Positions 9,091-32,000 of a stretch of DNA of 32,000 nt are shown here, piece by piece; position 1 is the first letter of the stretch; each line of letters begins with the position of its first letter. A program made the translations under genes and the position numbers. A model generated the notes under the pieces. That model did not search any database and was not told the DNA's origin. It saw nothing but the letters and a program-made list of their open reading frames with translations. The stretch is from positions 60,001 to 92,000 of the forward strand of contig NC_014824.1 of the NCBI RefSeq assembly GCF_000179635.2, in the 5' to 3' direction. Source of the stretch: Ruminococcus albus 7 = DSM 20455 (GTDB lineage: Bacteria; Bacillota; Clostridia; Oscillospirales; Ruminococcaceae).

Positions 9091-10752
9091 ATGATCAACT
9101 TATCAATGCCTATTTATGCAGCTAATATGAAATTTCCCGATGAATACATATCAGGAAACCCGGGCTCTACAACAATTAAGACCGGAGCGACAGGTGCTCC
9201 CGGAGTCGGTAATTCAAAAAAAATGCCAAGGGTTCATAAATCAAAATTTTCAAACGTTTTCACCATTTTGGTGGGAATAGTAAAAGAAGAAATAAAAGTT
9301 GCCTGCGCTGTTTGCGGGAGTGACAAAATATACGCAGAAATCAACGAAAAGCCTGTAGTATTCAATAATGGAGAATTATCTTCAATAGAAACACTCTCTC
9401 CAAAAGATATTGTAGCAGCTGCTACAGTTTATTATATGACAAATGCAGACCCTGATTACGAAGAATTTCAAGAGACAGCAAAAAAAGTAATTAGTGATAT
9501 CAGATCTTCTGGAAAAGCAAATTATGAAGACGCATTATTGCTATGTGATTCTTTTTATTACACAGCCAAAAACAAACTAAGTCAGGATCCTGCTTCAGGC
9601 TCACCGGCATTTATAGATGGAGAACCACTCAGCGATGAAAGCATAAAAGAAATGGGTAGGTTCTTTAAACCTAACATTTCAAACGACTTCCCGGCAAATA
9701 CATCTATTTTTTCAGCAATCGATTTTAAAGAGAAAGCTACTATATCAGAATCCGAAAAAACAACAATAGTAGATATAATATCAAGATGCAAATCAGGAGA
9801 ATTCATTCTTCCTTATGAATGGAGCGCTGACGACAGACAGCTCATTCCTTCTCTAAGTTTCCTTGATTTGTATATCCCTAGTGAAGATTTTGAGGACGCA
9901 CTGATCACTATGCACAGAGCCGGAACAAAAATCATCCAAAATATGGATCTCGGTAAAACAGGAGAAAACGCAATCGGCAATTACGGTAAATGCTTCGCTT
10001 TTATCGGGAAGCCCGGTACAGGTAAATCAACCATGAGCAAAGCTCTATGCGCTGCATTAGGCATGCCCTACTATCCATGTACAACAACAAGATACTCCGA
10101 GGAAGATGAATATCAGGGAAAACTTAAAATATCATCGTCCGAAGAAACATCCTCAGCAGCATATACAGGTTCAAGCAGTAACTTTAAGTTCTGTGAAACA
10201 CCATTCCTTAAAGGCTTCGAACGGGGAGGAATAGTAGTACTTGAAGAATTCAATTTGGCCGATCCCGGTATGCTCATGGGTGCCATAGGACAAGCAATCG
10301 AGAAACCCTTTATCATCGAAAAAGACGGATACTTGCCAACTGTAAGACATCCTCTGTGCATGATCTGTGTGACATGTAACATTGGCACACAAGGCTCTCA
10401 GATGCCGTCTGAAGCACTTTTCTCAAGAACGCCACACGTATTTGAGATCGATGATCCGGCGGATGAACAATTCGTAAAGATCCTCGGCAAACAGACCGAG
10501 GATGTATCAGAAAAGCAGATAAAAACTGTATACAGCACTTATAGGAAGGTTCTGGACTGGTTGAAAACCGAAAATATGCCGGAACTTATAAAGGTACTAA
10601 CTCTCAGACATTGCCTTGCAGCCCTCGATCAGATTGCGGCAGGGATCTCAACAAAAAAAGCACTTCAAAGGACTTTAGTAAATCCCTTGAAGGTTTATGC
10701 TCCAGATGTCGCAGAGGATGTAAAAGTCGGAATAATCGATATAATAAAGTAA
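9091..10752 (+). CDS. CobS/MoxR-like AAA+ ATPase (AAA_5 type) with an uncharacterised N-terminal extension of about 300 aa
   Basis: Start moved to the ATG at 9091 (TAGGAGGACTAAAA RBS). Walker A is GKPGTGKST and Walker B is GIVVLEEFN. The downstream layout (HPLCMICVTCNIGTQG...FSRT) resembles CobS-type ATPases. A VWA-protein gene follows directly. Confidence 0.8.
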   Translation: MINLSMPIYAANMKFPDEYISGNPGSTTIKTGATGAPGVGNSKKMPRVHKSKFSNVFTILVGIVKEEIKVACAVCGSDKIYAEINEKPVVFNNGELSSIETLSPKDIVAAATVYYMTNADPDYEEFQETAKKVISDIRSSGKANYEDALLLCDSFYYTAKNKLSQDPASGSPAFIDGEPLSDESIKEMGRFFKPNISNDFPANTSIFSAIDFKEKATISESEKTTIVDIISRCKSGEFILPYEWSADDRQLIPSLSFLDLYIPSEDFEDALITMHRAGTKIIQNMDLGKTGENAIGNYGKCFAFIGKPGTGKSTMSKALCAALGMPYYPCTTTRYSEEDEYQGKLKISSSEETSSAAYTGSSSNFKFCETPFLKGFERGGIVVLEEFNLADPGMLMGAIGQAIEKPFIIEKDGYLPTVRHPLCMICVTCNIGTQGSQMPSEALFSRTPHVFEIDDPADEQFVKILGKQTEDVSEKQIKTVYSTYRKVLDWLKTENMPELIKVLTLRHCLAALDQIAAGISTKKALQRTLVNPLKVYAPDVAEDVKVGIIDIIK

Positions 10753-10767
10753 TACAACGATCGAAAT

Positions 10768-10789
10768 GCTGCGGTCATCTGACCGCAGC
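10768..10789 (+). promoter_or_regulatory. GC-rich intergenic hairpin between the AAA+ and VWA genes
   Basis: A 9-bp stem, GCTGCGGTC-ATCT-GACCGCAGC, sits 16 nt after the AAA+ stop codon. It is followed by TATTTCAAATT, which is not a clean U-tract. Confidence 0.5.
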
Positions 10790-10816
10790 TATTTCAAATT
10801 ATATAAGGAGAATTTT

Positions 10817-13207
10817 ATGAATGAAAAATCAAAGACGGAACTTTTAAGATTCTGGAATGGATATTTTAAAAAGCTATCGAAAATAGATAGTATGATAGTA
10901 GGAAAAAAAATCGCTGTCAAAAGATGTGACGATTCTTTAGCCTACACTACAACAAAAAAAGACAAACGAATTATTTCCATTAATCCTTTTAGTCCGAGTG
11001 TACCGGAGTATCTGGTGAATGCAAAAAGATTCATAAACGGGCTGAACATTCATGAGGTCGGACACCAAAGATTCTCGGATTTTGATGCTCACAACAACTT
11101 TATAAAAATAATGGAGACTGCATCCAACATAAATTTCACTAACTGGCTTAAGAAATACGATTACCCCCCGTTGGAACTCTCCAGGGCTTATACAAAAAAG
11201 GAGGTATCTTTATTCCATCGTATATGGAATATAATCGAAGATACTTCTATAGAGTATTGGACATACGAAACTACAGGCGGCGAATTTCCTAACGATCTTC
11301 GCTTTACCGTAACATCAACTTATGAATTAGGCCCGAGCCTGGAAGAGTACGATGATCCATTTAGCCAAGTTTGTGCCGCAATGCTGCAGTACGGAGATAT
11401 AGGATTACTCAAAGGAAAATTTACATTTCCCGAAGCAAGAAAAATGTTTCTGGAAATTCAACCATCATACGATGAAGCTATCGAAGAAGGAGACGCAAAA
11501 AAGCGCATTTTAATCGCTTATTTTGTCTTCGAGAAGCTAAAGGTTTTCTGGGAACCACTCCTTAAGCAACAAGAGTTAATGGAAGAGCTGCTTAAAAATC
11601 TGGCTCATGATCTTGCTCGACAAGGTAAAGGTACACATTCATCAGATGCCTCAAGTGCATCACCGGGCGAAAAAAGCGAAGATGAAATCAAAAAGAAAGA
11701 AAAGAAGGAATCAAGAAAAAAAAGAACGATCGAGATGACTAAAAAGGAACTTGAAAAACTTCTTAAAAATCTCGAAAAAAATGACGATAACTCTGAAGGA
11801 GAAGAAGTTACCATCAAAATCATCGATGATGATAATGAGCCAGAAGAGAAGGAAGATGCTGAATCAAATGGAAACAGCGGTTCTGTTTCTTCAAAGAATG
11901 ATAGTACCAATGATGAGAATGGTGATTCAAACAACGGGATCAAATCTGAATCTACTGATAATGAAGACCATTGTAAAAGTAATAGTTCCGACAAATCTGA
12001 TGAAAACAAATCAGATGGAGCAGAGGATTCAAATATAAAAGATGAGCCTGCGGATAATGATTCCTCTGATGAGGCGAAAGCAGAAAATGATGAATCAAAT
12101 GAAAAAGAAGCAGCTAACGATTCCTCAAAAAAAGATTCAGAAGTGGATGAAAACGACAATACAAGCGGTTCAAATGACCTTGTAATGGAAAACTTTGATG
12201 TTGAATCCATCAATACTGATCTCGAAGATGATGATATTTGGGAAGATGTTGAAATCAGCCCCGAAGAGATCGACAGAATAAACGAAGAGATCGACGAAAT
12301 CATAAGTAACGAAATTATTTTTGAAAAAAAGAATATAAATGACGATAAATTGATCGATTTCCCGGATATACAAGGAAGAGGTTTTACAAAAGCAAAATGT
12401 AAAAACGTTGTTCTTGACGGTACATCATCATCTCTTTCAACGGCATATGAAAACGAAGTATCATGCATTGCCGGAGATATAGATAAACTTGCTGAAAAGC
12501 TGAAAAGAGCATCTGCAAAACCTAACACTGTAAAAACAAGACGTTCTTCGGGTCGTTTATCGGTTGACAGGTATTCGCGTTTTGATGCTCATCCTACCAC
12601 AAAACTCTTTGACAAAAGAAGAACAGCCGGAGAAAATGATTTAGCAGTCTTTATATCTGTTGACGAAAGCGGATCTATGAGCTGCGGGCGGCGTTCAAAT
12701 TCCGCAAGGAGGGCAGCGATCGGCATAGCTGAAGCGTGTGCTAAAGCTAAAATACCACTTTATATCATGGGCTTTACTGCAGATATAGACGGATACGAGG
12801 CGTATCACTTACATTACGTTCGATGGAAAAACACCATCGATGAACGTTATTCTCTTATGAATATATCTGCCAGAATGAATAATTTTGACGGATATAGTAT
12901 AAGATATGCTTCGAGACTTCTTCAAAAAAGAACCGAGAAAAATAAGCTGTTGATTGTAATTTCTGATGGTCAGCCTGCAGCGCAAGCATATAGAAATTAT
13001 TCAAATATTGGCGTTGCAGACACTAAAGATGCTGTACGTCAAGCAACCGCTGATGGTCTTGTCGTTCACGGAATCGCTATTGGCGGAACGGATGACGAGG
13101 TCTTGAAAGAAATCTATGGAGTAAATTTCACAGAAAACGACAATCTCTCTGATCTACTCAGGGATTTTGGCTCAGCGATCCTAAAACAATTAATTAAGGA
13201 AAGGTGA
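10817..13207 (+). CDS. CobT-like VWA protein with an N-terminal HExxH-containing domain, a long acidic low-complexity linker, and a C-terminal von Willebrand A domain
   Basis: Start moved to the ATG at 10817 (AAGGAG RBS). HEVGH is encoded at 11051-11065, with IIEDTSIE downstream. About 230 aa are D/E/S/N/K-rich (roughly nt 11610-12310). The MIDAS motif is VDESGSMS, followed later by VISDGQP. Confidence 0.8.
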   Translation: MNEKSKTELLRFWNGYFKKLSKIDSMIVGKKIAVKRCDDSLAYTTTKKDKRIISINPFSPSVPEYLVNAKRFINGLNIHEVGHQRFSDFDAHNNFIKIMETASNINFTNWLKKYDYPPLELSRAYTKKEVSLFHRIWNIIEDTSIEYWTYETTGGEFPNDLRFTVTSTYELGPSLEEYDDPFSQVCAAMLQYGDIGLLKGKFTFPEARKMFLEIQPSYDEAIEEGDAKKRILIAYFVFEKLKVFWEPLLKQQELMEELLKNLAHDLARQGKGTHSSDASSASPGEKSEDEIKKKEKKESRKKRTIEMTKKELEKLLKNLEKNDDNSEGEEVTIKIIDDDNEPEEKEDAESNGNSGSVSSKNDSTNDENGDSNNGIKSESTDNEDHCKSNSSDKSDENKSDGAEDSNIKDEPADNDSSDEAKAENDESNEKEAANDSSKKDSEVDENDNTSGSNDLVMENFDVESINTDLEDDDIWEDVEISPEEIDRINEEIDEIISNEIIFEKKNINDDKLIDFPDIQGRGFTKAKCKNVVLDGTSSSLSTAYENEVSCIAGDIDKLAEKLKRASAKPNTVKTRRSSGRLSVDRYSRFDAHPTTKLFDKRRTAGENDLAVFISVDESGSMSCGRRSNSARRAAIGIAEACAKAKIPLYIMGFTADIDGYEAYHLHYVRWKNTIDERYSLMNISARMNNFDGYSIRYASRLLQKRTEKNKLLIVISDGQPAAQAYRNYSNIGVADTKDAVRQATADGLVVHGIAIGGTDDEVLKEIYGVNFTENDNLSDLLRDFGSAILKQLIKER

Positions 13208-13720: not shown

Positions 13721-13756
13721 AGCTCTTGCTTCGGCAGGAGCTTTTGATTTTTTTTG
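13721..13756 (+). terminator. Intrinsic terminator ending the AAA+/VWA operon
   Basis: A 9-bp stem with a TTCG tetraloop (AGCTCTTGC-TTCG-GCAGGAGCT) is followed by TTTGATTTTTTTT. Confidence 0.7.
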
Positions 13757-13757
13757 A

Positions 13758-13777
13758 AAAATCTGCTATAATATAAT
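13758..13777 (+). promoter_or_regulatory. Extended -10 promoter (AAAATCTGCTATAATATA)
   Basis: TGcTATAAT lies about 120 nt upstream of the 13895 ATG. This 18-mer is identical to the first 18 nt of the 22-mer found at 22708-22729 and 24248-24269 (minus strand). Confidence 0.5.
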
Positions 13778-13894
13778 TATAGAGGGTAAGCTTAAACCAT
13801 TAATAAGATATTTTCGTCTACAGATAGCTAATTGAGAGGAGGGGAGCCGCTTTTCTGCTCAACATAAAGCGTTGAGGTATTCTGCGGCGTTTAT

Positions 13895-16317: not shown

Positions 16318-16400
16318 GATAAATAACTATAATTGTCGATTTTACCGCCTAACTCGTGTCTTTAGTCATGAGTTAGGCGGTATTTCCTGACAATCCATCA
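16318..16400 (+). repeat. Copy A of an approximately 80-bp hairpin-containing repeat (IS200/IS605-end-like)
   Basis: An 11-bp stem, CCGCCTAACTC (16345-16355) / GAGTTAGGCGG (16370-16380), encloses GTCTTTAGTCAT. The reverse complement matches 24596-24700 closely, flanks included (...GTCAgGAAATaCCGCCTAACTCATGACTAAAG...GGCGGtAAAATCGaCAATTA...). Confidence 0.65.
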
Positions 16401-16561: not shown

Positions 16562-16930
16562 GTACACAACATGGATGGCATAGATCGTTTTGCTGTGTGT
16601 TCGTGCGCCTGGTCATAAGCTATGAACAGCTTTTGGGCAGAGTGGCGGCATTCAGAAAAATGTTTATTATGGTATTAATGAATTAATAATATATTTGATT
16701 CTATTTCTTTGTTTAGAGTTGTGCAAAAAACAGATTCATCAAAGATTATTGAACATGGAGTTTTTCTTGATGAAATGATTTATTTGCAGAGTTTGATTTA
16801 AGAAATGGGTTTATTTTAGTATATCACAATATGGGCTACCTCTGTGTATCTCATATAGTTTTTGCTGTATATTTGCTGATTTTGCCTCCATGAGTTGATC
16901 ATTCAACCAAATTTATGGGAGGTATTTTTT

Positions 16931-18451
16931 ATGCATGAAAAAAAGTGGCCGGAAAACTGTGTGTGGCCGAGACCGAGATGGGATTTAGCAGATAAGTTAT
17001 CTCATTCAAATATACCTATTAGGAACTCAAAAGATGTTCAAAAATATTTTAATGAAGATTACCCCAAAATCAAAGAGTATATGGACGAACAGGTAAGGAT
17101 AGGCAGACTGAATCCTGATTATACACTTAATAAAAACTATTATAATATATATATCCAAAACCATACCTGTAAAACTCCAGAGGAGTTGAAGGAACTTAAG
17201 CTTCTTCAACTTGAACAAGATGAAGAATGTGAGTATGAGTGGCGCCCTGAAATAGGAGACGGATTTTGGGATGGGAAATTCCTTATCGAAAATTATGAGA
17301 GCGCCCCTGCTGATTTTGCAAACCTTCATAAAATATCCGTTAATGACGCTGGAAATGATCCTGTAAGTTATCTGAGCAGTATAACTGGATACAAATTTCA
17401 AAATGAGAACCTGCTAAGACAAGCTTTTACGAGGAAAGCCTTTAAGGAAGAATATCATCTTACGCGGTGCAGCGAACAATTTGAATTTTTAGGTAATGCA
17501 GTACTGAATGCAATGGTGACAAAAGAAATCGTCAAACAGAGCATATTAAATTTACCGGAGTACGTCGATGGAGTAGCATGGTTAAATTCGGAACGAGACA
17601 AGGGTTATATGACAAAACTTCGTACACAGTATGTTAACAAGGAATTCCTTGCCGAACGCGCAACTACACTGGGGTTTGACCGTTTCATTCTTTATGGTAA
17701 AGGCGAGAAAAAATCACAAAACAGCCGCGGAGATATTATAGAAGCAATCATAGGTGCTGTAGCTTTTGACTGCAACTGGGATTGGTCCACTCTTGAGAAA
17801 GTCGTATTTAATTTGATCAATTTCTGTATACCACATTTGGGGCATGAGTGTTATTTTGACGAAATGAACAAATGGCATCAGAAGCATTTTGGCAAGATAC
17901 CAGAGTATAAAGTTTTTCAAAAAAACAAGCCTGATGATACAGAGTGTTTTGAATGTGTGATACGATTTTCTCTGCCCGAAAATGATAAAGGGATCGAAAC
18001 GATTCAGGAAAAAGTCGGGAAAGAAGGATCAACTCGTTCTTTGGCAAAAGAAAATGCCGCAAAAAAAGCAGTGGATTTTTTAAAGGAAATCGGTTTATGG
18101 CTTGTTTTAGAAAACATAAATATCGAGCCGAGAGTAGAAGATGCGATAAATCAGCTTCAGGAATTGTATCAAAAGAAATATATTGACAAACCCGAATACG
18201 AATTTGTACGTATTGCTAAAGTCTGGGCGTGTGAATGCAAATACAATGGTATACAAAACTTTGCATATTCCAAAAACAAAACTGATGCTAAAAAGAAAGC
18301 AGCTTTCTATTCGCTTACTGAATTCATCATGAAATCAGGTTTAGAATATGATAAATGGTTCTCAATGATGCTTGATCTGATAGAAGAAGAACGACCGTTA
18401 CGCGAATGTATCCTGGAATATGATCGAAAAAAATCAAAAACTGAAGACTGA
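16931..18451 (+). CDS. Atypical RNase III-family protein: unknown N-terminal domain of about 175 aa, an RNase III domain with a signature Asp-to-Asn change, and two dsRBD-like modules
   Basis: Start moved to the ATG at 16931 (GGGAGG RBS). GYKFQNENLLRQAFT, then SEQFEFLGNAVL where canonical proteins have ERLEFLGD (the AAT codon is at 17495-17497). GDIIEAIIGAV is retained. The two dsRBD-like segments end in LAKENAAKKAVDFL and TDAKKKAAFYSL. Confidence 0.8.
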   Translation: MHEKKWPENCVWPRPRWDLADKLSHSNIPIRNSKDVQKYFNEDYPKIKEYMDEQVRIGRLNPDYTLNKNYYNIYIQNHTCKTPEELKELKLLQLEQDEECEYEWRPEIGDGFWDGKFLIENYESAPADFANLHKISVNDAGNDPVSYLSSITGYKFQNENLLRQAFTRKAFKEEYHLTRCSEQFEFLGNAVLNAMVTKEIVKQSILNLPEYVDGVAWLNSERDKGYMTKLRTQYVNKEFLAERATTLGFDRFILYGKGEKKSQNSRGDIIEAIIGAVAFDCNWDWSTLEKVVFNLINFCIPHLGHECYFDEMNKWHQKHFGKIPEYKVFQKNKPDDTECFECVIRFSLPENDKGIETIQEKVGKEGSTRSLAKENAAKKAVDFLKEIGLWLVLENINIEPRVEDAINQLQELYQKKYIDKPEYEFVRIAKVWACECKYNGIQNFAYSKNKTDAKKKAAFYSLTEFIMKSGLEYDKWFSMMLDLIEEERPLRECILEYDRKKSKTED

Positions 18452-18574
18452 ACTTACAAATAGATATTTTATGATTGAAATGCATATGCTGCCATTCTGA
18501 TTGTAAAATATGTTTTCTGTTTTGTTATCGGTAAATAGGCTTGAACGTCAAATATTCAGAATATAAGAGCCAAA

Positions 18575-18614
18575 AAAGAGAACTCTAACGCTTAACAGCA
18601 AAAGAGTTCTCTTT
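18575..18614. terminator. Bidirectional terminator between the RNase III-like gene and the topoisomerase operon
   Basis: 12-bp arms AAAGAGAACTCT / AGAGTTCTCTTT with a 16-nt loop, an A-run on the left and a T-rich tract on the right. Confidence 0.6.
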
Positions 18615-18618
18615 TCGT

Positions 18619-20601
18619 TTATACATATTTTTCTCGTTGAAAGCCTATAAATTTATGTCCCTTATATTCTTGCTCTGCAAGTTTTCCAATCACGTTGTAA
18701 ACATTTCCTTCTTTACTTCTGATCCCAGTTAGTTTGATGGATTTTCCCGCAAACAAATCATTTAATTCTTCATTTGTAAATGTATGCCCACCCCATACAG
18801 AACTGATCCTAATGGTTTTTCCTTTCCATTCACCAACGACCTTATCCTTGATCTCAACCGGCTTGATAGACAATGCAGTACGCATAGCAGCTCCGTTTTT
18901 TTTCATGACCTCTATATCATGCTTTACTAATTCCCGGATCTCAGCAAGCAGTTTCTCCGGATCACTTTTTCCTGCAGCTATTTCCTTCATGTTAAGCATG
19001 ACCTGTTCTGTTATCTTTATATTTCCTATATTCGTTCCCGGCAAGATCCTGTAACTCATTTCACCGCACTGGGTCATAGTTATCTTACCCTTTTTATCTA
19101 CAAGTAACGGAAATTTGGCTGATTCGTCTGTAACCTCAGAATAGGTACTTACTCGTGTGGCACCTGTGCCAACGTCATATTTTTCAAGTTGTTTCATTAA
19201 CCATTTCTGTGTTGGCACAGTGGGTTTCTTTGCAAATCCCTCATGTATAAACGGTGATGCAGTTTTTCCGAGTTCTTTACCTATAGTTTTTTCTTCGTCA
19301 TCATCTGCATAATTAAATACCGCTTTGTATCCTATTTTTTTCGGGACAGCAATTTTTCCAATAAATTCTGGATACATCTCTATATGCCCTTTTTGAAATT
19401 CATATTCATAGTCTTCCGCCAGCATTGCCAAATAGTTTTTGGCAAGCGTTGTGTATATCTCTGCAGCTCCCTTTCCGTACTTTTTTAGATCTGCCAGCGA
19501 TTTAGGGACTACCGGGCCGGGCCGGTTAGCTCCATGCGCACAACCCGTTGAAATATGAGTTTTACGCGGAATCCTATGTGTCAACAGGGAAGTCTTGACT
19601 CCTACTACATTAGCAATTGCGTCTATTTTGGGGAGAAGTTCATTAAACTGATCTATAGTTATCTTTTTATCTTCAGTTCGTGGATAACTTACGATCTGGT
19701 CTTCGTACATTTTCTGATAGGTAGCCAAAAGTTCGCTTGCTTTTATTCCCTTGGCAGATAATATTGAAGATAATGCTGCAAGATCCAGCAGCTTCCCGGG
19801 TGGCTGTGATTTAATCTCTTTTGAATCAACAACAACGCCGGAAGGCTTATATTTACTAGGAACATCAGATTTGTTTTTATATTTTTCTTCGGAGTTATTG
19901 GTATACACATTACCATTTTCATCTTTAAACCTCGTCTGATAAAATGGCGTTTTTTTGTATTCGCTTACAGCTTTAAGCTGCTCGCCTACAAGCCATACCA
20001 TTGCAGATTTTAAACGTCCTTGCCTGAGTACGGACCTTCCATCTCCGAATATGGTAGCGATCCTAGTGAACTGAATGGAAATAAAATCCCATTTGGTGCG
20101 ATATAGAGCCTTTATATAGTCCATATCTTTATCCATAGAAGGAATCTCTTTTCTGCTTACAAAAGCCTTCTGGATGTTTCCCGCTGCTTCATCCGGGAAG
20201 TACATTCTTGAATATTTTCTCGGTCTAAGCTTCAGTTCACTCAATATCTCCCATGCAAGCAGTTCACCCTCTCCGGAAGGATCATCATCAGTTGCAATGA
20301 CGATTTCATCACACTTAGACAGTACATTATAAATTTCCTTAAGCAGTGCATCAGATCCGGGCTTCTTTATCCTTCTCCATTTAAATTCCTTTTCATCCCA
20401 GGGAAGAAAGTCGATGTTCCAAGACTTGTATTTTCCGGATAAAGAAGCATCGACCTGCTTGTAAGGTTCCTCGAATTGATACAAATGACCTTTTGCATGA
20501 GTAAGAATAAATTGCTCTCCGTTGTATATACCGCTTACGCCGCCCAGCGCCTTTTTAAAGTTCTCATAAGCACTATTTTTTTCGGTTAAAATCCCTACCA
20601 A
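18619..20601 (-). CDS. Type IA DNA topoisomerase (Topo III-like, as found on mobile elements)
   Basis: TTG start with a GAAAGGA RBS. Toprim residues are Glu (GILTEK) and the acidic cluster ATDDDPSGEGE. The active-site Tyr context is VSYPRTED. CAHGANRP and GTGATRVSTY are also present. Confidence 0.85.
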   Translation of the reverse strand: MVGILTEKNSAYENFKKALGGVSGIYNGEQFILTHAKGHLYQFEEPYKQVDASLSGKYKSWNIDFLPWDEKEFKWRRIKKPGSDALLKEIYNVLSKCDEIVIATDDDPSGEGELLAWEILSELKLRPRKYSRMYFPDEAAGNIQKAFVSRKEIPSMDKDMDYIKALYRTKWDFISIQFTRIATIFGDGRSVLRQGRLKSAMVWLVGEQLKAVSEYKKTPFYQTRFKDENGNVYTNNSEEKYKNKSDVPSKYKPSGVVVDSKEIKSQPPGKLLDLAALSSILSAKGIKASELLATYQKMYEDQIVSYPRTEDKKITIDQFNELLPKIDAIANVVGVKTSLLTHRIPRKTHISTGCAHGANRPGPVVPKSLADLKKYGKGAAEIYTTLAKNYLAMLAEDYEYEFQKGHIEMYPEFIGKIAVPKKIGYKAVFNYADDDEEKTIGKELGKTASPFIHEGFAKKPTVPTQKWLMKQLEKYDVGTGATRVSTYSEVTDESAKFPLLVDKKGKITMTQCGEMSYRILPGTNIGNIKITEQVMLNMKEIAAGKSDPEKLLAEIRELVKHDIEVMKKNGAAMRTALSIKPVEIKDKVVGEWKGKTIRISSVWGGHTFTNEELNDLFAGKSIKLTGIRSKEGNVYNVIGKLAEQEYKGHKFIGFQREKYV

Positions 20602-20606
20602 ATTCG

Positions 20607-21383
20607 TTATCCTTTCTCGCTACTCTTCTCATTAAAAATAACTATGGTTGACATATTATCTTCGTATTTCCTGATCTTTGCAGCATCTATCAAGGCTCTT
20701 ACAGCTGATTTTGTATTATCAGCTGTAAGTACAAGTTCCATAATGATATGCTGCCAGAGAGCACAATGAATACCATCAGATGTTATCACTATGACACCAT
20801 TCTTAAAATCAAAAGAACCTGTCTGTATCTGAGGTTCAGCAAATGAGCCTATATTGCTCGTCAGCTGGTGCATAGCCACGCTTTCCATGTACTCTCTTTC
20901 ATCTATTTTATTCTGCAGGTACTCATTGTAGTTTGCCGTATGATCAACTGTCATCTGAATGATTTTTGGCTCTTTGTTCTTATTTGTGGTGATCCACTGA
21001 AGTCTTGTGTTTCCGCAATGTGCAAAATATACCTTCTCTTTATGAATAACACAACAGGTCATGCTGCAGCCGAAGTTGGGAAAACGTTCGTCATTAACAG
21101 CATTGAATACTCCGAGAACTCTGTTAGCAAGATAAAAAGCCTCATCCATTAAACTGTCCGCATTATCAAAGATGGCTGTTCCTTCACGGTCAAAGCGCCT
21201 TTTTATCAGGTTGATCACTTCGGCGCATGCAATACTTGCAGGATTATACTGTCCCTCAATTCCTCCTATACCATCTGCTACGATAAATACAAAAGTTTCA
21301 GTATCTAAGGCGAACTGATAAATAACATCTTCCTGCCTTTCACGATTAACGCCAATGTCACTCATTCCATCAAATACTATCAT
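20607..21383 (-). CDS. PP2C-family Ser/Thr protein phosphatase
   Basis: GVNRERQEDV, VADGIGG, ITSDGIH and YEDNMSTIVIF. The start overlaps the upstream stop (ATGA). Confidence 0.8.
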   Translation of the reverse strand: MIVFDGMSDIGVNRERQEDVIYQFALDTETFVFIVADGIGGIEGQYNPASIACAEVINLIKRRFDREGTAIFDNADSLMDEAFYLANRVLGVFNAVNDERFPNFGCSMTCCVIHKEKVYFAHCGNTRLQWITTNKNKEPKIIQMTVDHTANYNEYLQNKIDEREYMESVAMHQLTSNIGSFAEPQIQTGSFDFKNGVIVITSDGIHCALWQHIIMELVLTADNTKSAVRALIDAAKIRKYEDNMSTIVIFNEKSSEKG

Positions 21384-21931
21384 TTCTCGGCTGAATTATC
21401 AGCCGTCACCTCCCCGGAGTCACTATTTTTTGAAAGGATTACAGCTGCACTGTACACAGCGTAATCGTCAATGATCTTATCTTTGTAATTCAAGTAGATA
21501 AAAGATACTTCCGCTGCAGAATATGGAGTTCCGATCTGATTGACCGAGGCTACATACAATCCGTTGATATCTTCAAAAAGGTCTTCAAAAGAAGCTATCC
21601 CTTTTTTTGCATCTTCACTGCTTTCAGGTTCGATAACCAGATCGCTCTTTTTATCTGTATAGTTTTGTTGAATAGAAAACAACATATTTTGCTGAACTTC
21701 AAGCTCAACAAGAAAATCCTCTGGTGACATTTTACCAATGACATATAAAGTGTATACGTCTTGTGTTGACTTTATCAGCTCATTCAGCTTATCTTCCGTT
21801 TCATCAACAGACATTATCCATTCTTCGGCTTTTATTTCTTTTTTAGTTTCGATTGTTTCTTTTTCGCAGGCTGATAAAAAAAACAGCGATAAAGAAAACA
21901 ATACCGGAGCAATTTTCTTCGATAGTCTCAT
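21380..21931 (-). CDS. Lipoprotein of unknown function
   Basis: Start moved to the ATG at 21931 (GGAAGGA RBS). The signal peptide carries a lipobox: MRLSKKIAPVLFSLSLFFLSAC. Confidence 0.7.
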   Translation of the reverse strand: MRLSKKIAPVLFSLSLFFLSACEKETIETKKEIKAEEWIMSVDETEDKLNELIKSTQDVYTLYVIGKMSPEDFLVELEVQQNMLFSIQQNYTDKKSDLVIEPESSEDAKKGIASFEDLFEDINGLYVASVNQIGTPYSAAEVSFIYLNYKDKIIDDYAVYSAAVILSKNSDSGEVTADNSAEK

Positions 21932-21932
21932 A

Positions 21933-22676
21933 CTAAAATTTCCTTCCGGATTCAGATATAAACTCTTCGTACTGTCTTTTATAATAGTTATAGAAAACCT
22001 CGTCTTTTTCTGTTTCAGGTAAAGCGTCATGCAAAAAGTCGATCGGAGAATCATAGAATTGTTCTGCGATATCGCGGAGCTTCCATTTATCCAACCACTT
22101 CAGGATGTTACGATCACCAAAAAGCCTGTATACATCTTCTATGTTTTCAAAATTCTGTTGCTGTGTGATTGCATGCTGTAAACATATAGCAACCTTAAGC
22201 TTACCATCGTTTATAACATCGAAGAAATGTTTTGGAAACTTCTTTATAACTCCGTTAAGAAGATCGTTATATGTAACGATTATCATTTCCCTTTCATCTA
22301 AATGGTAACGGGAACCGAAAACATATTTGAGCAACACCTGAATATCAGACTTGACCATTTTTTTATGCGCTTCGCCGTTTTCTTCTGATGTGTAAAACCT
22401 AGCCTTGCCGTTAGGTTCATTGTAGAAATTTATATAAGACAAATACTTGTCAACCTTATAATTTTTCAGTATTTCAAGATCCAGTCTCTGTTCAGCTGTC
22501 TCAGGATCCCAACCTAGAATATTTTCGATGAGATACCTAAAGATCTCAACAGCGATAGAATTGTTTCTATCTGCGTTGTCCCCGAAGTAATATGTTGAGG
22601 CCTGCCTTCTTTTTCCTACAAGTATCTCCTCATATTCAAGTATAATCGCCATTTTCTGTTTATCAGTTATGATCAC
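21933..22676 (-). CDS. Hypothetical protein, first gene of the topoisomerase operon
   Basis: The ORF is open from 22685 (a TTG that abuts the RBS). The GTG at 22676 is 9 nt after AAGGAG and is the better start, and the ATG at 22652 is an alternative. Its stop is 1 nt from the lipoprotein ATG. Confidence 0.6.
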   Translation of the reverse strand: MIITDKQKMAIILEYEEILVGKRRQASTYYFGDNADRNNSIAVEIFRYLIENILGWDPETAEQRLDLEILKNYKVDKYLSYINFYNEPNGKARFYTSEENGEAHKKMVKSDIQVLLKYVFGSRYHLDEREMIIVTYNDLLNGVIKKFPKHFFDVINDGKLKVAICLQHAITQQQNFENIEDVYRLFGDRNILKWLDKWKLRDIAEQFYDSPIDFLHDALPETEKDEVFYNYYKRQYEEFISESGRKF

Positions 22677-22707
22677 AAAGATCAACTCCTTATTAAAATT
22701 TATTTGC

Positions 22708-22729
22708 TATATATATTATAGCAGATTTT
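22708..22729 (-). promoter_or_regulatory. Extended -10 promoter for the topoisomerase operon; copy 1 of an exact 22-mer
   Basis: The minus strand reads AAAATCTGCTATAATATATATA, about 35 nt upstream of the RBS. It is identical to 24248-24269. Confidence 0.5.
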
Positions 22730-22730
22730 C

Positions 22731-22860
22731 TCGTGAAGCTTCACACGACTAAAGTCGCGTGCTTCCTATAGTGTCCTAGCGGACACCCCCACTTTAGGTG
22801 GGCGGACTACGTTTCTACCATACAGCCTGAACTCAGAAAATTATGCTGTTTTAGCAATAA
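22731..22860 (-). ncRNA. Putative TnpB omega-RNA (reRNA) scaffold overlapping and following the tnpB 3' end
   Basis: Consecutive hairpins lie directly downstream of the tnpB stop codon: 22788-22802 (CCCAC/GTGGG), 22771-22786 (GTGTCC/GGACAC), 22744-22761 (CACGAC..GTCGcGTG) and 22733-22744. The position matches known TnpB guide-RNA loci. The exact ends are unknown. Confidence 0.5.
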
Positions 22861-24166
22861 TTTCCGCATTCAGGTTAACTAAGGTAGAGAACGTGCAGGT
22901 GCTTCTCTTACTGAATTGAGGGACTTTAGCCTCAATGAGCAACCTTGAATTCTCATCCAAGGATTTTAATATTTCACGTATGAAGTATCTTGCACCGATA
23001 TTATACGAAGCAGATAGATCACAGTTGTAGGTCTTGCCATTTTGAAATTTGCATAGCTCATAGGTATTGAAACCACCGAATTTACCGCGAAGTACAAAAC
23101 CACTGCCATCGTAGGCAAGGCGTGACGTATTCCATGCACAGATATGGCTTACTCTCATACCTAGTCTGTGAGCTTTATTCGTTACAATAGACTGAACTTC
23201 CTGACTGCGCCACAGCTTGAGTTTCTGCTTTTTAGAACCGCGGACCTTACCGTTCTTGTCTAAATGCTCAAATACAATAACATCTGCATTATAAAGAACG
23301 GCTATATCTACGATGCAGTTCGCAGTTTTAGTGGCAATGTCGTGATTGATTCCTTTGGCTTTTGCCCAAAGCCTTGGTGTTTTATAGTTACCATGCTGCT
23401 GAGCTTTTTTGATACGGTTAACACAATGCATCAGATGGTCTGTTTCTTTGGTAAGCTTACAAAAATGCCTTCCAAGAATAGTGCCATCTGAACGCATTAC
23501 GGAAATCGTAGCAGCGGTGTTTATTCCAAGGTCTACAGCAACAATGGTCTGCTCATACACAGATATATCTGCAAGTTTGACCTTTTCCTCAAACGGAAAG
23601 TCCAAAAACCACTCCTTGCCTCGTTTTTGAAGTGTTGGAGCGCATTGCTTGCGAAAACTGCAATATCTGTATATATAATCCATATCAGACTTTTTAAGGT
23701 TTATCGTTATCCAGTCCCATGTATTACGGATGTATACTTTGATCTGGGCAGTATAATCACCGGTCCGATTGTACATTACTGTACGATACATAGACGGGAA
23801 TGAATAACCTGCTTTTGGATACGATGGTTCTCTTCCGACCGGATCTTTGATCCAGTTATCGAGATTGGTTTTGTAAGATGATACCTTGCCTATAGCCTCG
23901 TTAATAGCACCACGGCGCAGATAGCTTGGCATCTTATAGAATTTGGCATCAAAATCATAAATTGGATCGGGATTATCTTTTGTAGTATGGATCAGTGTTT
24001 CAATATATGTGAGTCTACTCACACCTTTGAATGTAATTATGTTATCCCATTTATCAAGACATACTTTGATAAGGTAATCTACAGCATGTCTGTATTCGAT
24101 AACGGTATCTTTAAAGATGTTGTTGTAATGCTTGATCTTAACGCTGTAAGTCGTATATATCTGCAT
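22841..24166 (-). CDS. tnpB: TnpB-family RNA-guided nuclease (IS200/IS605 accessory protein type)
   Basis: RuvC-I is IVAVDLGIN, RuvC-II is VIVFEHLD, and RuvC-III is YNCDLSASYNIGARY. AWNTS is also present. The usual CxxC...CxxC zinc ribbon is largely degenerate. AGGAGGGA RBS. Confidence 0.85.
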   Translation of the reverse strand: MQIYTTYSVKIKHYNNIFKDTVIEYRHAVDYLIKVCLDKWDNIITFKGVSRLTYIETLIHTTKDNPDPIYDFDAKFYKMPSYLRRGAINEAIGKVSSYKTNLDNWIKDPVGREPSYPKAGYSFPSMYRTVMYNRTGDYTAQIKVYIRNTWDWITINLKKSDMDYIYRYCSFRKQCAPTLQKRGKEWFLDFPFEEKVKLADISVYEQTIVAVDLGINTAATISVMRSDGTILGRHFCKLTKETDHLMHCVNRIKKAQQHGNYKTPRLWAKAKGINHDIATKTANCIVDIAVLYNADVIVFEHLDKNGKVRGSKKQKLKLWRSQEVQSIVTNKAHRLGMRVSHICAWNTSRLAYDGSGFVLRGKFGGFNTYELCKFQNGKTYNCDLSASYNIGARYFIREILKSLDENSRLLIEAKVPQFSKRSTCTFSTLVNLNAEIIAKTA

Positions 24167-24247
24167 ACTGCAGACTCCCTCCTTCTACTTGTTTTTTTGA
24201 GAATTAATGTAATCTGTTACATGTTTAAGAATTCTATCACTTACTGT

Positions 24248-24269
24248 TATATATATTATAGCAGATTTT
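24248..24269 (-). promoter_or_regulatory. Extended -10 promoter of tnpB; copy 2 of the exact 22-mer
   Basis: The minus strand reads AAAATCTGCTATAATATATATA, about 80 nt upstream of the tnpB ATG. Confidence 0.5.
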
Positions 24270-24308
24270 TTTAAGAATAAAAAATTATATATACTAAAAG
24301 TTTTGCTG

Positions 24309-24334
24309 TGTTTGTGTCACGCGTGACACAAACA
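24309..24334. repeat. Perfect 26-bp palindrome
   Basis: TGTTTGTGTCACG|CGTGACACAAACA, centred on ACGCGT. Confidence 0.9.
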
Positions 24335-24595
24335 AAATTTTAATTGTTTTTATTAGATCTAAGAAGCAGAAAGGGTGAAGTGTTGCAACCGCAGCACCCT
24401 CTAACTATATCCGAACATCAGAGTAAAAAAACATATTTACTGGTGACAGCCCCTTCCCTTAAGAATTATAATAGCATCTGTCAGTCTTAATTGAGGCTTG
24501 CAGTTTAAAAGACGAATTATATGGTCAGGACTGCATTCCTGTATTTGGTAGTCCATACGATATGGTATTACAATGAATATACATACCCTCGACCA

Positions 24596-24700
24596 TGCAC
24601 AACAGAATGTCAAGAAATGCCGCCTAACTCATGACTAAAGTCACGAGCGTGCGGCGGCAAAATCGTCAATTAAAAATTTTATATAGTTATTTTTATTGAA
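24596..24700 (-). repeat. Copy B of the hairpin repeat (inverted relative to copy A)
   Basis: CCGCCTAACTCATGACTAAAGTCACGAGCGTGCGGCGG (24620-24657) and its flanks match the reverse complement of 16318-16400. The core resembles the hairpin at the tnpB right end. Confidence 0.65.
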
Positions 24701-24786
24701 AATAATTTTTCTATATAATAACATTCTCCCCCCCCCCGACTAAAAGCTTGGGAGAATGTCACGACAACAACCTAAGGCTATTTCAA

Positions 24787-25678: not shown

Positions 25679-25967
25679 ACATAAACATTCCTTTCCTTTA
25701 TCGATGATATTATTATAGCAGAATAAAGGCATGATGTTCAAGACATCTTTTCTAAATACTTTTTCAAATTGTTCAGCCAAAACCTCAAGTGTGATAAAAT
25801 ATAAAGCTTGCTTTATGACAAAAATCAAGACTGCGAATCACCGTTATTTTAAAAACAGCATATTTTGTTTTACAAATAGCTGGGTATAATAATGTACTAT
25901 GAAATAGTTTTTTGAATCAGCTTTATTAACTATAAATGAATAATTTATAAAAATCGACTCCTGACAA

Positions 25968-27027: not shown

Positions 27028-27142
27028 TGATTTTAGTAGTTTGGGATGTTTTCTGATCTCCGAATGAAGCGGTTATATAAATATATTAAGATTTTGCCAA
27101 AACTTACATAATTTGCCATATATAACCAATTATTGTAAAAAG

Positions 27143-27243
27143 TATTCAAATCTTGAATACTATTATTCACGAATTGAATATTATAATTCAAACCTTGAAT
27201 ACTTTTATTCAAAGTCTGAATATTATTATTCAAGTCTTGAATA
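27143..27243. repeat. Five 17-bp palindromes (TATTCA-N5-TGAATA) at exact 21-bp phasing
   Basis: Units start at 27143, 27164, 27185, 27206 and 27227. Related AATTCAAnnCTTGAATT sites lie at 27372-27388 and 27632-27648. Confidence 0.9.
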
Positions 27244-27247
27244 AAAC

Positions 27248-27346
27248 GCTTTAGCACGCTAAAACTATCTTTAGTACGCTAAAACTAATTAGTTTCATAT
27301 TTCTAAAACTAATTTCATATTTCTAAAACTAAATTTAGTTTTAGCG
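27248..27346. repeat. CTAAAACTA repeat block
   Basis: A 20-bp tandem pair (27248-27267 / 27268-27287, 18/20 identical). A perfect 20-bp tandem duplication TTTCATATTTCTAAAACTAA (27293-27312 / 27313-27332). An inverted copy TAGTTTTAGCG (27336-27346). Further copies include a 10-bp perfect inverted repeat at 27426-27454 and direct copies at 27560-27590. Confidence 0.85.
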
Positions 27347-27482
27347 TGACGAAGGAAAATTCTGGAAAAATAATTCAAAGCTTGAATTTAAAAGTGCCTC
27401 AAATGAAGCAAAAATCTTCAAAATCCTAAAACTAATTCGAAAAGTTAGTTTTAGACTCATAAAGGAAAATAGAAACGAAAAC

Positions 27483-27513
27483 ATACCCAAATGATACCCA
27501 AAACATACCCAAA
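27483..27513 (+). repeat. Three direct ATACCCAAA repeats with an 11-bp period
   Basis: 27483-27491, 27494-27502 and 27505-27513. Confidence 0.7.
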
Positions 27514-27955
27514 TCGGAGGAAATCCCGGGCTACAAACAGCGTTTGAGTTCATTTCTGCCCTAAAACTACCCTAAAACTGCACCAAAACTGGATTTTTTC
27601 ATTCGTTTTTTCTTCCCTTTTTACCTCCAAAAATTCAAACCTTGAATTTAAACCAAAAATCAGGGGGGACCAACTTTTTTTCAAGAGAAAAATCGACCTC
27701 ATGAAAGAATATTAAAACGAAAATACACCCGCCGGACAAAGAAAATATAAAACATAGATGCAGCTCTGCTCTCTTGTAAGGTGTCTAAAAATTAGACAGT
27801 AAAAAATCCTATCGTTTCATCCCATCTTCATTACATTTTCCCGTCATACTTCAAAATCAACCACCCACGAATACATTTCTCTATTACAAAACATTCTTTC
27901 CCTCAAAAAAAGAAGCTTTATTGAAAACAAGAATGATACCATACTGAAAAATCAC

Positions 27956-28009: not shown

Positions 28010-28441
28010 ATGGCATTAAAAGGAATACATGGCGGAAGATTCAGTTTTGACAGTAAAGAACTCATAAAGGAAATCAAGAGGGATATCGTAGAATTTGGAA
28101 GAGAAGAAATTTATGCTGTATGGTTAAGAAAGTACCCCCAATATAATGTAGAATTTATCGTAAATTATGACTTCATAATTGATGAAGATGATGACCCGTT
28201 CAAAGATTTTGAAGTTAATGATGATTACTTGTACGGAAAATTTGAAAAAGGAGAGAACGAAAGGATCGTTCTCATGTCAGCTGACAAAATACTTGACTAC
28301 CTGCAAAAACAGAATGACCCGACTGAAATTTACGAAGTAAATGTACACGGAAATCAATTTTCAAAAAATCAGGTTTCAAAAGTTACATTTATATTTCAGG
28401 TTGTACAAATTACTGGACAGAGCACCTGGAAAATGATATAA
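28010..28441 (+). CDS. Hypothetical protein whose native stop codon was displaced by the IS insertion (native form about 112 aa)
   Basis: The reading frame runs from host DNA into the left IS end at 28346. Removing the IS and one duplicated target copy places a TAA immediately after ...EIYEVNV. Confidence 0.55.
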   Translation: MALKGIHGGRFSFDSKELIKEIKRDIVEFGREEIYAVWLRKYPQYNVEFIVNYDFIIDEDDDPFKDFEVNDDYLYGKFEKGENERIVLMSADKILDYLQKQNDPTEIYEVNVHGNQFSKNQVSKVTFIFQVVQITGQSTWKMI

Positions 28442-29575
28442 TATAGGCATGAATAATGGAATAACCGAGTATTTTGAAGATATTGAATTATATGAGGAAT
28501 ATGACGGCTATTTTTGCAGTATCCCCGATATCATTACAATAGCAATTCTTGGAAGTATCTGTGGACTTAGAAACATTCATCAGATTCATCAATGGGCGAC
28601 AAATGACAGAGTAAGCGAATTCTTAAAGGAGAAATTCGGAATCGATCATGTCCCTTGCTATTATTGGATATTGAGCCTGCTGAAATATGTCAAGCCCGAA
28701 TCGCTCAACCGCTGTTTTGCGGATTGGGTCTATTCATTCATGCCCGAAAAGTCCAAAAGTATGACGATCTCTCTTGACGGGAAAACTGTTTGTTCGACAC
28801 TTAAAATGAGTAAGATCGAAAGTCCTCTGCACATCATCAGCGCACAGATATGCGAACTTGGATTGACCCTGGCACAACGCAGCACGGACGATAAAAGCAA
28901 CGAGATACCTGCGGTGCAGGAGCTTCTGAAAGAACTGAAAATAAAGGGTAATATAGTTGTTGCGGATGCACTGAACTGTCAGAAAGAAACTGCTGAGATT
29001 ATCGTAAAACAAAAGGCAGATTATCTGCTTTGCGTTAAGGATAATCACCCAAATTTGAAGAAAGATATCGAGGATTATGTGCAGGACAGTTCTCTCAGAG
29101 ACACTATGCAAACAGTTTCAAGAACGGAGAAAAACCGTGGCAGAGTTGAAACAAGGACAGCGTATGTAACAACAGATATCAACTGGCTGGAACAGAAAAA
29201 AGAGTGGAAAAATCTGAAGTGCATAGGAGCCATTCATACTGAATTTTCAACGAAAAAAGGCACTTCGAGCGAATGGCACTATTACCTTTCAAGCCGCGAA
29301 ATGACAGCGGAACAGCTCCTTCATCATGCAAGAATGGAATGGTCGGTTGAGTCAATGCACTGGCTGCTTGATGTTCATTTTGAAGAAGATTGGTGCAGAG
29401 TCGAAAACAAAGACGTTCAGCAATGCCTGAATATGTTCAGAAAAGCTGCGATAAATTTAATCAAGAACTTTAAAAATCGGAACAATTCTAAAGCCGCCAT
29501 ATCCAAACTTATGTTTGAATGTCTTATGGAGCCGCAGATGATTTCGAGGGTGATTTTTGAAAATTGATTTCCGTG
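28346..29575 (+). mobile_element. ISAs1-family insertion sequence (1,230 bp) with perfect 22-bp terminal inverted repeats and a 9-bp target-site duplication
   Basis: The left repeat CACGGAAATCAATTTTCAAAAA (28346-28367) is the reverse complement of 29554-29575. GTAAATGTA flanks both ends (28337-28345 and 29576-29584). Confidence 0.85.
28449..29567 (+). CDS. ISAs1-family (H-repeat-associated) DDE transposase
   Basis: N-terminal DIITIAILGSICGLRNIHQIHQW. D/D/E contexts are ISLDGKTV, VVADALNCQ and HWLLDVHFEEDWCR. The 3' end runs into the right inverted repeat. Confidence 0.85.
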   Translation: MNNGITEYFEDIELYEEYDGYFCSIPDIITIAILGSICGLRNIHQIHQWATNDRVSEFLKEKFGIDHVPCYYWILSLLKYVKPESLNRCFADWVYSFMPEKSKSMTISLDGKTVCSTLKMSKIESPLHIISAQICELGLTLAQRSTDDKSNEIPAVQELLKELKIKGNIVVADALNCQKETAEIIVKQKADYLLCVKDNHPNLKKDIEDYVQDSSLRDTMQTVSRTEKNRGRVETRTAYVTTDINWLEQKKEWKNLKCIGAIHTEFSTKKGTSSEWHYYLSSREMTAEQLLHHARMEWSVESMHWLLDVHFEEDWCRVENKDVQQCLNMFRKAAINLIKNFKNRNNSKAAISKLMFECLMEPQMISRVIFEN

Positions 29576-31098: not shown

Positions 31099-32000
31099 TT
31101 ATTTAATGGTTATCGTGAATGATCGTTTATCCAGGTCTCTTGTATCCCACTTGCCGTTTATCTTGGCGCATATCACGACTTTGTATTTGTCTCCGGGAGT
31201 CAGCCTTGGGGTGGTGTAAGATGTCTTTTCAGTGTATTCTACAACTTTCCATTTGTTTGCGATTTTTACTGCAATGCCGTACTCGGTGGCATTCTTGATG
31301 CGCTCCCATCCGAAACTGTACTGGTGAGTTGTCGGGGAGTATACGCTCCAAGTTTCGGAAGGCTGCCATTCATCTATCACAACGAGCACCGGATTCGAGA
31401 AGTTCATGTCCCACTTGCCGTTATACATTGCGAAGACAGCTACCCTATATTTAGATATGAAGTTCAGACCGCGCAGTGTGTATGAATTGTCTGTTGTCTT
31501 TTCAACAAGCTTCCACTTATCATTCTGATAGACTGCGATGGCGTACTTTTCTGCGTTTTTATCAGCTTTCCAGCTGAGTTCTGCATAACCTGCACCGGGA
31601 ACAAATGTTATGTCGGTCTTATTTTTATTGCCGATATATTCGTACTGGACATTATACTTTTTTGCATACTTCTCGCCTTCGCTGTCAGGATAGCAGTATA
31701 TCTTTAATTCTTTGATCTTTATCTCGTCAAAGCCGATAGCATAATAATAACCGAAAGCCTTTTGGCCGATACTTGTAACGGAGGCAGGAATAGTTACGTT
31801 CAGGAGACTGTTACAGCCATAGAAAGCATCTGAACCGATGGTCTTTACACTGTCGGGGATAGTTATGCTTTTAAGGCTTCTGCAGTCCTGGAAGGTGCAA
31901 TCGTTGATGGCTGTGATACCGTCAGGGATATTTGCGCTTATAAGATTTCTGCAGCAGTCAAAAGCTCCGCCGCCTATCTTTGTAACACTGTCAGGGATAG
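31099..32000 (-). CDS. C-terminal part of a BspA-type LRR surface protein with FN3-like modules (N-terminus outside the window)
   Basis: My hand translation of 31429-31860 in the frame of the listed ORF stays open (...IPDSVKTIGSDAFYGCNSLLNVTIPASVTSIGQKAFG...AEKYAIAVYQNDKWK...). The C-terminal module is homologous to the C-terminus of the 585-3293 protein. Confidence 0.8.
   Translation of the reverse strand, partial: IPDSVTKIGGGAFDCCRNLISANIPDGITAINDCTFQDCRSLKSITIPDSVKTIGSDAFYGCNSLLNVTIPASVTSIGQKAFGYYYAIGFDEIKIKELKIYCYPDSEGEKYAKKYNVQYEYIGNKNKTDITFVPGAGYAELSWKADKNAEKYAIAVYQNDKWKLVEKTTDNSYTLRGLNFISKYRVAVFAMYNGKWDMNFSNPVLVVIDEWQPSETWSVYSPTTHQYSFGWERIKNATEYGIAVKIANKWKVVEYTEKTSYTTPRLTPGDKYKVVICAKINGKWDTRDLDKRSFTITIK

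Follow-up and report, generated by a model that had tools for sequence, protein, structure and literature searches.

The tnpB element and its insertion site

The DNA analysed here is a 32,000-nt stretch of the Ruminococcus albus 7 contig NC_014824.1 (the window, below, always means this whole stretch, and coordinates are counted from its first letter). Its minus strand carries tnpB (22841-24166), which encodes a protein of 441 amino acids, and downstream of it the DUF4046 gene (21933-22676, minus strand), which is the first gene of an operon, has a GTG start codon after AAGGAG and belongs to Pfam DUF4046. A search of the window located the 22-mer AAAATCTGCTATAATATATATA in two exact copies on the minus strand, one between these two genes (22708-22729) and one 82 nt before the ATG of tnpB (24248-24269). 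The same sequence is present with 2 mismatches on the plus strand at 13758-13779, where its first 18 nt are exact (13758-13775). Between the two minus-strand copies the repeat stretches to 25 nt with 1 mismatch. A match comparable to this recurrence was obtained in 0 of 100 shuffles, and the recurrence is real and not due to chance. A first-pass annotation of this DNA, which had pointed out the two exact copies, the 18/18 match and the location of one copy about 80 nt upstream of tnpB, was thus accurate on these points. It had also read the 22-mer as an extended -10 promoter element, and TGnTATAAT is indeed found upstream of a ribosome-binding site (RBS) and start codon, from which promoter activity may be inferred.

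The ends of the element that houses tnpB were fixed by comparison with more than 25 copies located elsewhere. The homology to L001-L009 and to over 20 other copies ends abruptly at ...GGCTTCAC, which corresponds to window position 22733; the right end reads ...GTCGTGTGAGGCTTCAC in more than 24 loci and is then followed by unrelated DNA. On the other side, homology among the copies begins straight after a TTGAY pentanucleotide, at window position 24664, and the flanks are unrelated between loci. In the copies located beside clpX/clpP/tig (L001-L006, 96% amino acid identity), DNA similarity spans the window from about 24680 to 22733 and then ends, and in the copy from R. albus AR67 (L009, 94% amino acid identity) the match extends from about 24671 to 22733. 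The long match to L007 and L008 (84% identity, with a Y1 tnpA) covers only 24249-22731, with an additional short tnpA match at 24529-24456, because these two copies are without the promoter cassette described below. The window therefore houses a complete IS200/IS605-family element of 1932 bp (22733-24664, minus strand), which consists of the left end, a tnpA pseudogene with a promoter cassette, tnpB, an omega-RNA scaffold and the right end. Since the ends are at 24664 and 22733, the downstream 22-mer is flanking DNA and the upstream 22-mer lies some 400 bp inside the element. The first-pass annotation had bounded the unit near 24270, i.e., at the upstream 22-mer, which the comparison with other copies shows to be internal.

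The left end is immediately preceded on its 5′ side by TTGAC (24665-24669, minus strand), the target pentanucleotide or target-adjacent motif (TAM). Of 18 distinct insertions, 16 have TTGAY before the left end and the remaining 2 have TTGAA. A left-end subterminal hairpin (GCCGCCGCACGCTCGTGACTTTAGTCATGAGTTAGGCGGC; 24619-24658, minus strand) is conserved in all copies and has its hairpin core, GACTTTAGTC, in common with the right-end hairpin.

The downstream 22-mer (22708-22729, minus strand) is the native extended -10 core of the DUF4046 operon. For an element-free comparison, orthologues of its first gene took the place of an exact empty-site allele. Two of them (L040/L041, 85% amino acid identity) carry AAAATCTGCTATAATATATATAG natively at the corresponding position before that gene, in a leader of the form ...CATATAAAATTTTTTTTGAGCACAAAAATCTGCTATAATATATATAGAAATAAATT...AAGGAG...ATG, whose 23-nt core is the same as that of the window. 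The upstream half of the split native promoter region lies at 24665-24720 (minus strand). When it is joined to position 22732 and beyond (...CTATATAAAATTTTTAATTGAC|GAGAAAATCTGCTATAATATATATAGCAAATAAATT...), the alignment with the L040 promoter region runs through the junction without a gap. No base is duplicated in these joined flanks, which are colinear with the orthologue that has no element, i.e., there is no target-site duplication. It follows from the native copy in L040/L041 and from the gap-free junction that the downstream 22-mer predates the insertion and that the insertion made no duplication. The predicted empty site would read ...AAAATTTTTAATTGACGAGAAAATCTGCTATAAT....

The exact DUF4046 protein was found on 22 contigs, and the three that were shown all begin inside the element; assemblies therefore break in this multi-copy element. 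Two further candidate explanations of the insertion site were considered and rejected. TTGAC is only about 11-12 nt away from TATAAT, which disqualifies it as the -35 element of the split promoter, and a nested or tandem insertion of elements is not the source of the flanking 22-mer, since the DNA beyond it is the native DUF4046 leader conserved in element-free orthologues.

Some additional observations concern other insertions. The TAM TTGAY resembles a -35 box. The joined site of the L030 copy (right-end flank at L030:2965) reads TTGAC|A-N16-TATTAT and that of the L021 copy (L021:2416) reads TTGAT|A-N17-TAGAAT, both with a TGn extension; these two copies seem to occupy precisely the interval between the -35 and -10 elements of strong promoters, and promoter-derived guides may be common in this TnpB clade. 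In the window itself, a solo left-end-like fragment is present at 16330-16395 on the plus strand. Over 68 nt it shares 85% identity with the element's left end, hairpin included; TTGTC precedes it, and it lies in a non-coding gap of about 640 nt before an RNase III-like gene. Neither tnpB nor a right end comes after it, and an older related insertion has probably left it behind as a relic.

The omega-RNA, its guide and the TnpB protein

An omega-RNA scaffold behind tnpB is well supported. It occupies 22733-22959 (minus strand) and has a core, 22735-22905, closed by the long-range helix GAAGC...GCTTC, which pairs the region of about 22905 with that of 22735; the open reading frame (ORF) contains another two conserved hairpins, upstream of the core. 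The final 230 nt of 24 copies were aligned (A4); their consensus structure contains 63 predicted pairs, 31 of them with compensatory changes, and 95.2% of the cells are paired. The covariation score was 0.314, compared with 0.135 ± 0.007 in shuffles, none of which (0/500) reached the observed value, and did not exceed 0.077 in slid-partner controls. The minimum free energy of the window scaffold corresponds to a z-score of -6.9. Hairpins fill the 108 nt between the tnpB stop codon and the last conserved base, 22733. The proposal that about 110 nt of hairpins following tnpB constitute an omega-RNA thus stood with respect to the scaffold but not to its extent, since the structured RNA reaches about 120 nt further, into the tnpB coding region. 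The scaffold was also compared with known RNA families, and no omega-RNA family of Rfam was matched at the gathering and E-value thresholds.

The guide of TnpB derives from DNA adjacent to the right end. The flanks diverge from base 22732 onward in all copies, and the guide is predicted to start at this base, 3 nt before the 22-mer (GAG...), and to read GAGAAAATCTGC...; its predicted template is the first 20 nt or so of the flank past the right end (GAGAAAATCTGCTATAATAT; 22713-22732, minus strand), the length of the guide being assumed. The right-end comparison agrees with the first-pass view that the DNA abutting the right end, the would-be source of the guide, contains the 22-mer. The same view placed the 22-mer directly after the last stem; the adjacency is real, but GAG (22732-22730) intervenes between the conserved end at 22733 and the 22-mer.

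The homology of the tnpB product to TnpB is clear, and the protein is divergent. It matched the NCBIfam model guided_TnpB over residues 76-393 with E=2e-18 and 66.8 bits, which is below the curated cutoff of 100; Pfam matches were weak (OrfB_IS605, 22.7 bits against a cutoff of 30.5; Cas12f1-like_TNB, 17.6 against 26.3), and a family profile matched the TnpB structure 9nzp of the PDB with E=6.7e-8. D212, E300 and D383 align to the catalytic positions of 9nzp and of Cas12f, and this RuvC triad is invariant across relatives down to 51% identity. In the zinc finger (CxxC...CxxC), AYDG stands in place of the first CxxC and CKFQ...C is what is left of the second; only C372 and C382 are conserved, and the loss is family-wide. 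The identification of the ORF as TnpB from its sequence, its intact RuvC D/E/D residues and its mostly missing zinc-ribbon cysteines were all confirmed in this way. More than 7000 TnpB homologues were found, mostly in gut and rumen metagenomes. Many of them lie on contigs of 1.5-2 kb, as is usual for elements whose many copies fragment assemblies. The closest named TnpB is that of R. albus AR67, and an exact-protein look-up of the window TnpB returned no record.

Putative promoters inside and outside the element and the origin of the repeat

Between the left end and tnpB the element carries the remains of tnpA, the gene of a Y1/HUH transposase. The 5′ remnant (24454-24613, minus strand), recognised by alignment to the intact 142-amino-acid TnpA of L029 and to L007, has its start codon deleted, its HUH motif mutated (PDHIIRLL) and a stop codon. 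The 3′ remnant (...TVSDRILKHVTDYINSQKNK*; 24185-24247, minus strand), aligned with L029, L007 and L001, has lost the WNPSYFVA codons, including that of the catalytic tyrosine. Among the relatives, Y1 TnpA is intact in L029, and L007/L008 and P0023 carry PF01797; the window has the pseudogene only. The middle of tnpA is replaced by a promoter cassette of about 200 nt (24248-24453, minus strand), which is absent from L007 and L029, both with an intact tnpA, and present in L001-L006, L009 and L044-L046. The cassette holds the internal 22-mer and a perfect 26-nt palindrome (TGTTTGTGTCACGCGTGACACAAACA; 24309-24334, minus strand) about 45 nt upstream of the tnpB -10 element. In sister copies (L001) the two arms have changed in concert, from TTTGTG...CACAAA to ATTGTG...CACAAT, so that the palindrome is preserved, which suggests an operator or a hairpin under selection.

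The internal 22-mer (24248-24269, minus strand), an exact copy of the flanking one, contains the extended -10 TGCTATAAT of the putative tnpB promoter. Nine sister copies (L001-L006, L009, L045 and L046) have a standard form of this promoter, TAAATCTGCTATAATATATATG, also given as TAAATCTGCTATAATATATATGG, and L044 has the variant AAAAAAATCTACTATAAT with 7 A's; these copies are at unrelated loci, with unrelated right-end flanks. Since the same promoter is found in sister copies with unrelated guides, we infer that the internal 22-mer is the element's own tnpB promoter and is not tied to the guide. Relative to the standard form, the window copy has a T>A change in the A-run and a 22-nt deletion right after ATATAT; its identity to the flanking 22-mer is 22/22, and that of the standard element copy is 20/22.

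Promoters of this kind are not restricted to the element. TCTGCTATAAT is present exactly at 5 sites in the window, compared with 1.0 expected with one mismatch allowed, and none of 100 shuffles reached 5. Each of the five sites lies upstream of an RBS and start codon and contains the extended -10 TGCTATAAT. The members of this family include the third, 18/18 copy (13758-13775, plus strand), located upstream of a gene for a 473-amino-acid protein and without a TAM in register, a TCTGCTATAAT site at 4770-4780 (plus strand), whose leader resembles that of DUF4046 (73% similarity over 40 nt), and a TCTGCTATAAT site at 25712-25722 (minus strand), upstream of an RBS and ATG. The region at 5402-5443 (minus strand), also a member, has 86% identity to the internal promoter region of the element over a length of 42 nt. 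In R. albus AR67, another native copy lies outside the element (L009:139). Since AAAATCTGCTATAATATATATAG is native in the orthologue and TCTGCTATAAT recurs upstream of start codons, the repeat reflects homology within a promoter family.

We consider it very probable that a non-autonomous IS200/IS605 TnpB element, with a decayed tnpA and a tnpB that looks active, has inserted in a host promoter while carrying a promoter of the same family, and that the repeat is due to shared promoter ancestry and not to a guide-target relationship. The element would have inserted, without target duplication, immediately 3′ of TTGAC inside the native promoter of the DUF4046-PP2C-topoisomerase operon; insertion inside a promoter region would explain why its right end abuts an extended -10 (TGCTATAAT). 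The guide GAGAAAATCTGCTATAAT... together with the TAM TTGAC would then specify the uninterrupted version of the same site. The cassette would have replaced the middle of tnpA in a sub-lineage and would travel with the element to unrelated loci. Cassette and host promoters would form one family (…AAAATCTGCTATAATATA…), which occurs at least 5 times in the window and also in related genomes, and the change from 20/22 to 22/22 would have come about through the T>A change in the A-run and the 22-nt deletion. By analogy with what is known of the family, tnpB and the omega-RNA would be transcribed from the cassette promoter, the 3′ guide (GAGAAAAUCUGCUAUAAU...) would steer TnpB to TTGAC-flanked empty sites, which it would cut in the canonical manner of TnpB, favouring retention or re-copying, and mobilisation would require TnpA in trans. 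The downstream operon probably keeps its expression through the -35-independent extended -10 or through read-through.

Several points weigh against this explanation. The exact empty-site junction, TTAATTGACGAGAAAATCTGCTAT, gave 0 matches in the metagenome_contigs and viral_contigs collections, and the element-free comparator is only an 85%-identical orthologue, with about 1.2 kb of extra DNA further upstream. A sigma-70 consensus scan that requires a -35 element did not list the 22-mers, which are without one, and their promoter activity is suggested by the extended -10 motif, position and conservation. The TnpB protein scores below curated family cut-offs and is without the zinc finger, and its nuclease activity is assumed. 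Finally, both changes that distinguish the window copy from its nine sister copies raise its identity to the flank located 1.5 kb away.

The latter fact, and the beginning of the 22-nt deletion exactly at the end of the repeat, would be expected if, with the same anatomy, short-tract gene conversion or repair between the neighbouring repeats had turned 20/22 into 22/22, in which case the repeats may also delete tnpB and the omega-RNA occasionally. We regard this as unlikely. The variant with 7 A's is also present in L044, at an unrelated locus, and homopolymer slippage is enough for the left-hand change. The base that follows the deletion, A, is the element's own downstream sequence, and the right-hand gain is therefore due to deletion and not to conversion.

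It is very unlikely, in our estimate, that the promoter which took the place of tnpA in this sub-lineage was acquired from the same host promoter family into which the element inserts, with a homology that could drive the spread or the reversible deletion of the tnpB-omega-RNA module. Were it so, 20-25 bp, and up to about 45 bp, of homology would link the interior of the element to promoter paralogues, and recombination could spread the module between paralogous promoters. Reversible deletion of the module would restore a complete promoter before the host operon, and a TnpB-only element would have a TnpA-independent route of movement or switching.

The first-pass annotation had proposed that TnpB and its omega-RNA are aimed at the promoter 22-mer and act at their own gene and at the neighbouring 13758 copy, which would amount to autoregulation, repression as by TldR, or homing into promoter copies. 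In favour of this, the 22-mer is part of the guide template, the internal copy is matched perfectly from guide position 4 to 22 or beyond, and TldRs are known to target promoter -10 regions (bioRxiv 10.1101/2023.11.30.569447). However, TldR and TnpB relatives need a TAM plus a TAM-proximal seed of about 6 nt (bioRxiv 10.1101/2023.11.30.569447), and the register of the two copies provides neither. At the internal copy the TAM positions, 24277-24273, are TTCTT and target positions 1-3 are AAA, whereas the guide has GAG (TTCTT+AAAAAAATCTGCTATAATAT); at the 13758 copy the TAM positions, 13750-13754, are TTTTT and positions 1-3 are TGA (TTTTT+TGAAAAATCTGCTATAATAT). Both differ from the family TAM TTGAY, so that the TAM which the proposal called for 5′ of the other two copies was not found, and no TTGAY stands in register at the other promoter-family members of the window. 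The only match to TAM plus guide is the uninterrupted site itself. In addition, the internal promoter is conserved in copies with unrelated guides and is thus independent of the guide. With its invariant RuvC triad, and with intact transposon ends in an element that occurs in many genomic contexts, the protein is not TldR-like. We therefore judge such self-targeting to be highly improbable.

The second proposal of that annotation, a 1,540-bp promoter-tnpB-scaffold unit created or inserted by recombination between two promoter copies, is scarcely credible: the direct repeat of 22-25 bp does bracket exactly this unit, but the unit is really 1932 bp long with canonical ends, 24270-24664 being element sequence (cassette, tnpA remnant and left-end hairpin) common to copies in other genomes, the insertion site carries the family TAM, and it is the joined outer flanks, not a 22-mer-bounded unit, that are colinear with the element-free orthologue.

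Genomic surroundings and comparison with known TnpB systems

Neither the host region nor the element matched any entry of the phage and plasmid collections in megablast searches. The replicon is nearly identical to contig JHYT01000017.1 of GCA_000621285.1, with 2 mismatches in 5367 nt. The neighbourhood at 9034-13207 and 16895-22685 encodes an AAA_5 MoxR-like ATPase with a VWA/CobT-like protein, a 518-amino-acid RNase III-like protein with a long N-terminal extension, the DUF4046-PP2C-topoisomerase (Toprim) operon, and dockerin/leucine-rich repeat and ricin-lectin/CHAP proteins. Such genes point to an accessory or extrachromosomal-like region in a cellulolytic Firmicute. The non-coding region 27138-27730 is densely packed with short direct repeats of 16-24 nt, each present 3-4 times, and with inverted repeats; it looks like iterons, an origin or else a regulatory array. 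Another mobile element, unrelated to the first, is present at 28346-29575; it encodes a DDE_Tnp_1 (IS4-like) transposase of 372 amino acids and has perfect 22-nt inverted repeats, CACGGAAATCAATTTTCAAAAA and TTTTTGAAAATTGATTTCCGTG, at its ends. A 47-nt stretch is shared, as a direct repeat of 72% similarity (625-671 and 31139-31185), by a 912-amino-acid lectin/CHAP gene and a 109-amino-acid ORF near the window end, which may be paralogous gene fragments.

The tnpB element is a canonical one of the ISDra2-like kind. It resembles ISDra2-type IS200/IS605 elements (OMEGA; TAM TTGAT) in its insertion 3′ of a TTGAY pentanucleotide without duplication, in the subterminal hairpins at both ends, in the Y1 TnpA of intact relatives and RuvC D/E/D residues of TnpB, and in a structured RNA that overlaps the 3′ end of tnpB, extends to the right end and takes its guide from the flank. 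It differs from them in that its protein falls below Pfam and NCBIfam cut-offs and matches solved TnpB structures at about E=1e-7, in that its family lacks the CxxC...CxxC zinc finger and its RNA has no Rfam match, and in that tnpA has decayed and contains the inserted promoter cassette. With IS1341-type and other tnpA-less TnpB elements it shares tnpB and an omega-RNA between intact ends in the absence of a functional transposase, and in both cases movement presumably takes place in trans, or upkeep by TnpB-mediated homing. Unlike them, the window element still has recognisable tnpA remnants, with the gap filled by a host-type extended -10 and an upstream 26-nt palindrome.

The likeness to TldR (bioRxiv 10.1101/2023.11.30.569447) is that the guide overlaps a promoter -10 element. 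However, TldR has a deteriorated RuvC active site, whereas the triad of the window protein is intact and invariant; TldR is without a transposon context and is fixed to a non-transposase gene, whereas the window element has intact ends and occurs in more than 20 genomic contexts. The guide of the window element has no TAM-flanked target elsewhere, and its overlap with a promoter is a by-product of the insertion site.

The locus thus provides a caution, since a guide-adjacent repeat near a nuclease gene can mimic self-targeting or TldR-like regulation, and it is the element boundaries, the TAM register and the element-free orthologues that expose promoter homology. It also offers an example of the replacement of tnpA by a promoter, which yields a TnpB-only derivative. 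The abundant zinc-finger-less TnpB clade of gut and rumen Lachnospiraceae and Ruminococcus gains here a covariation-supported omega-RNA and a TTGAY TAM.

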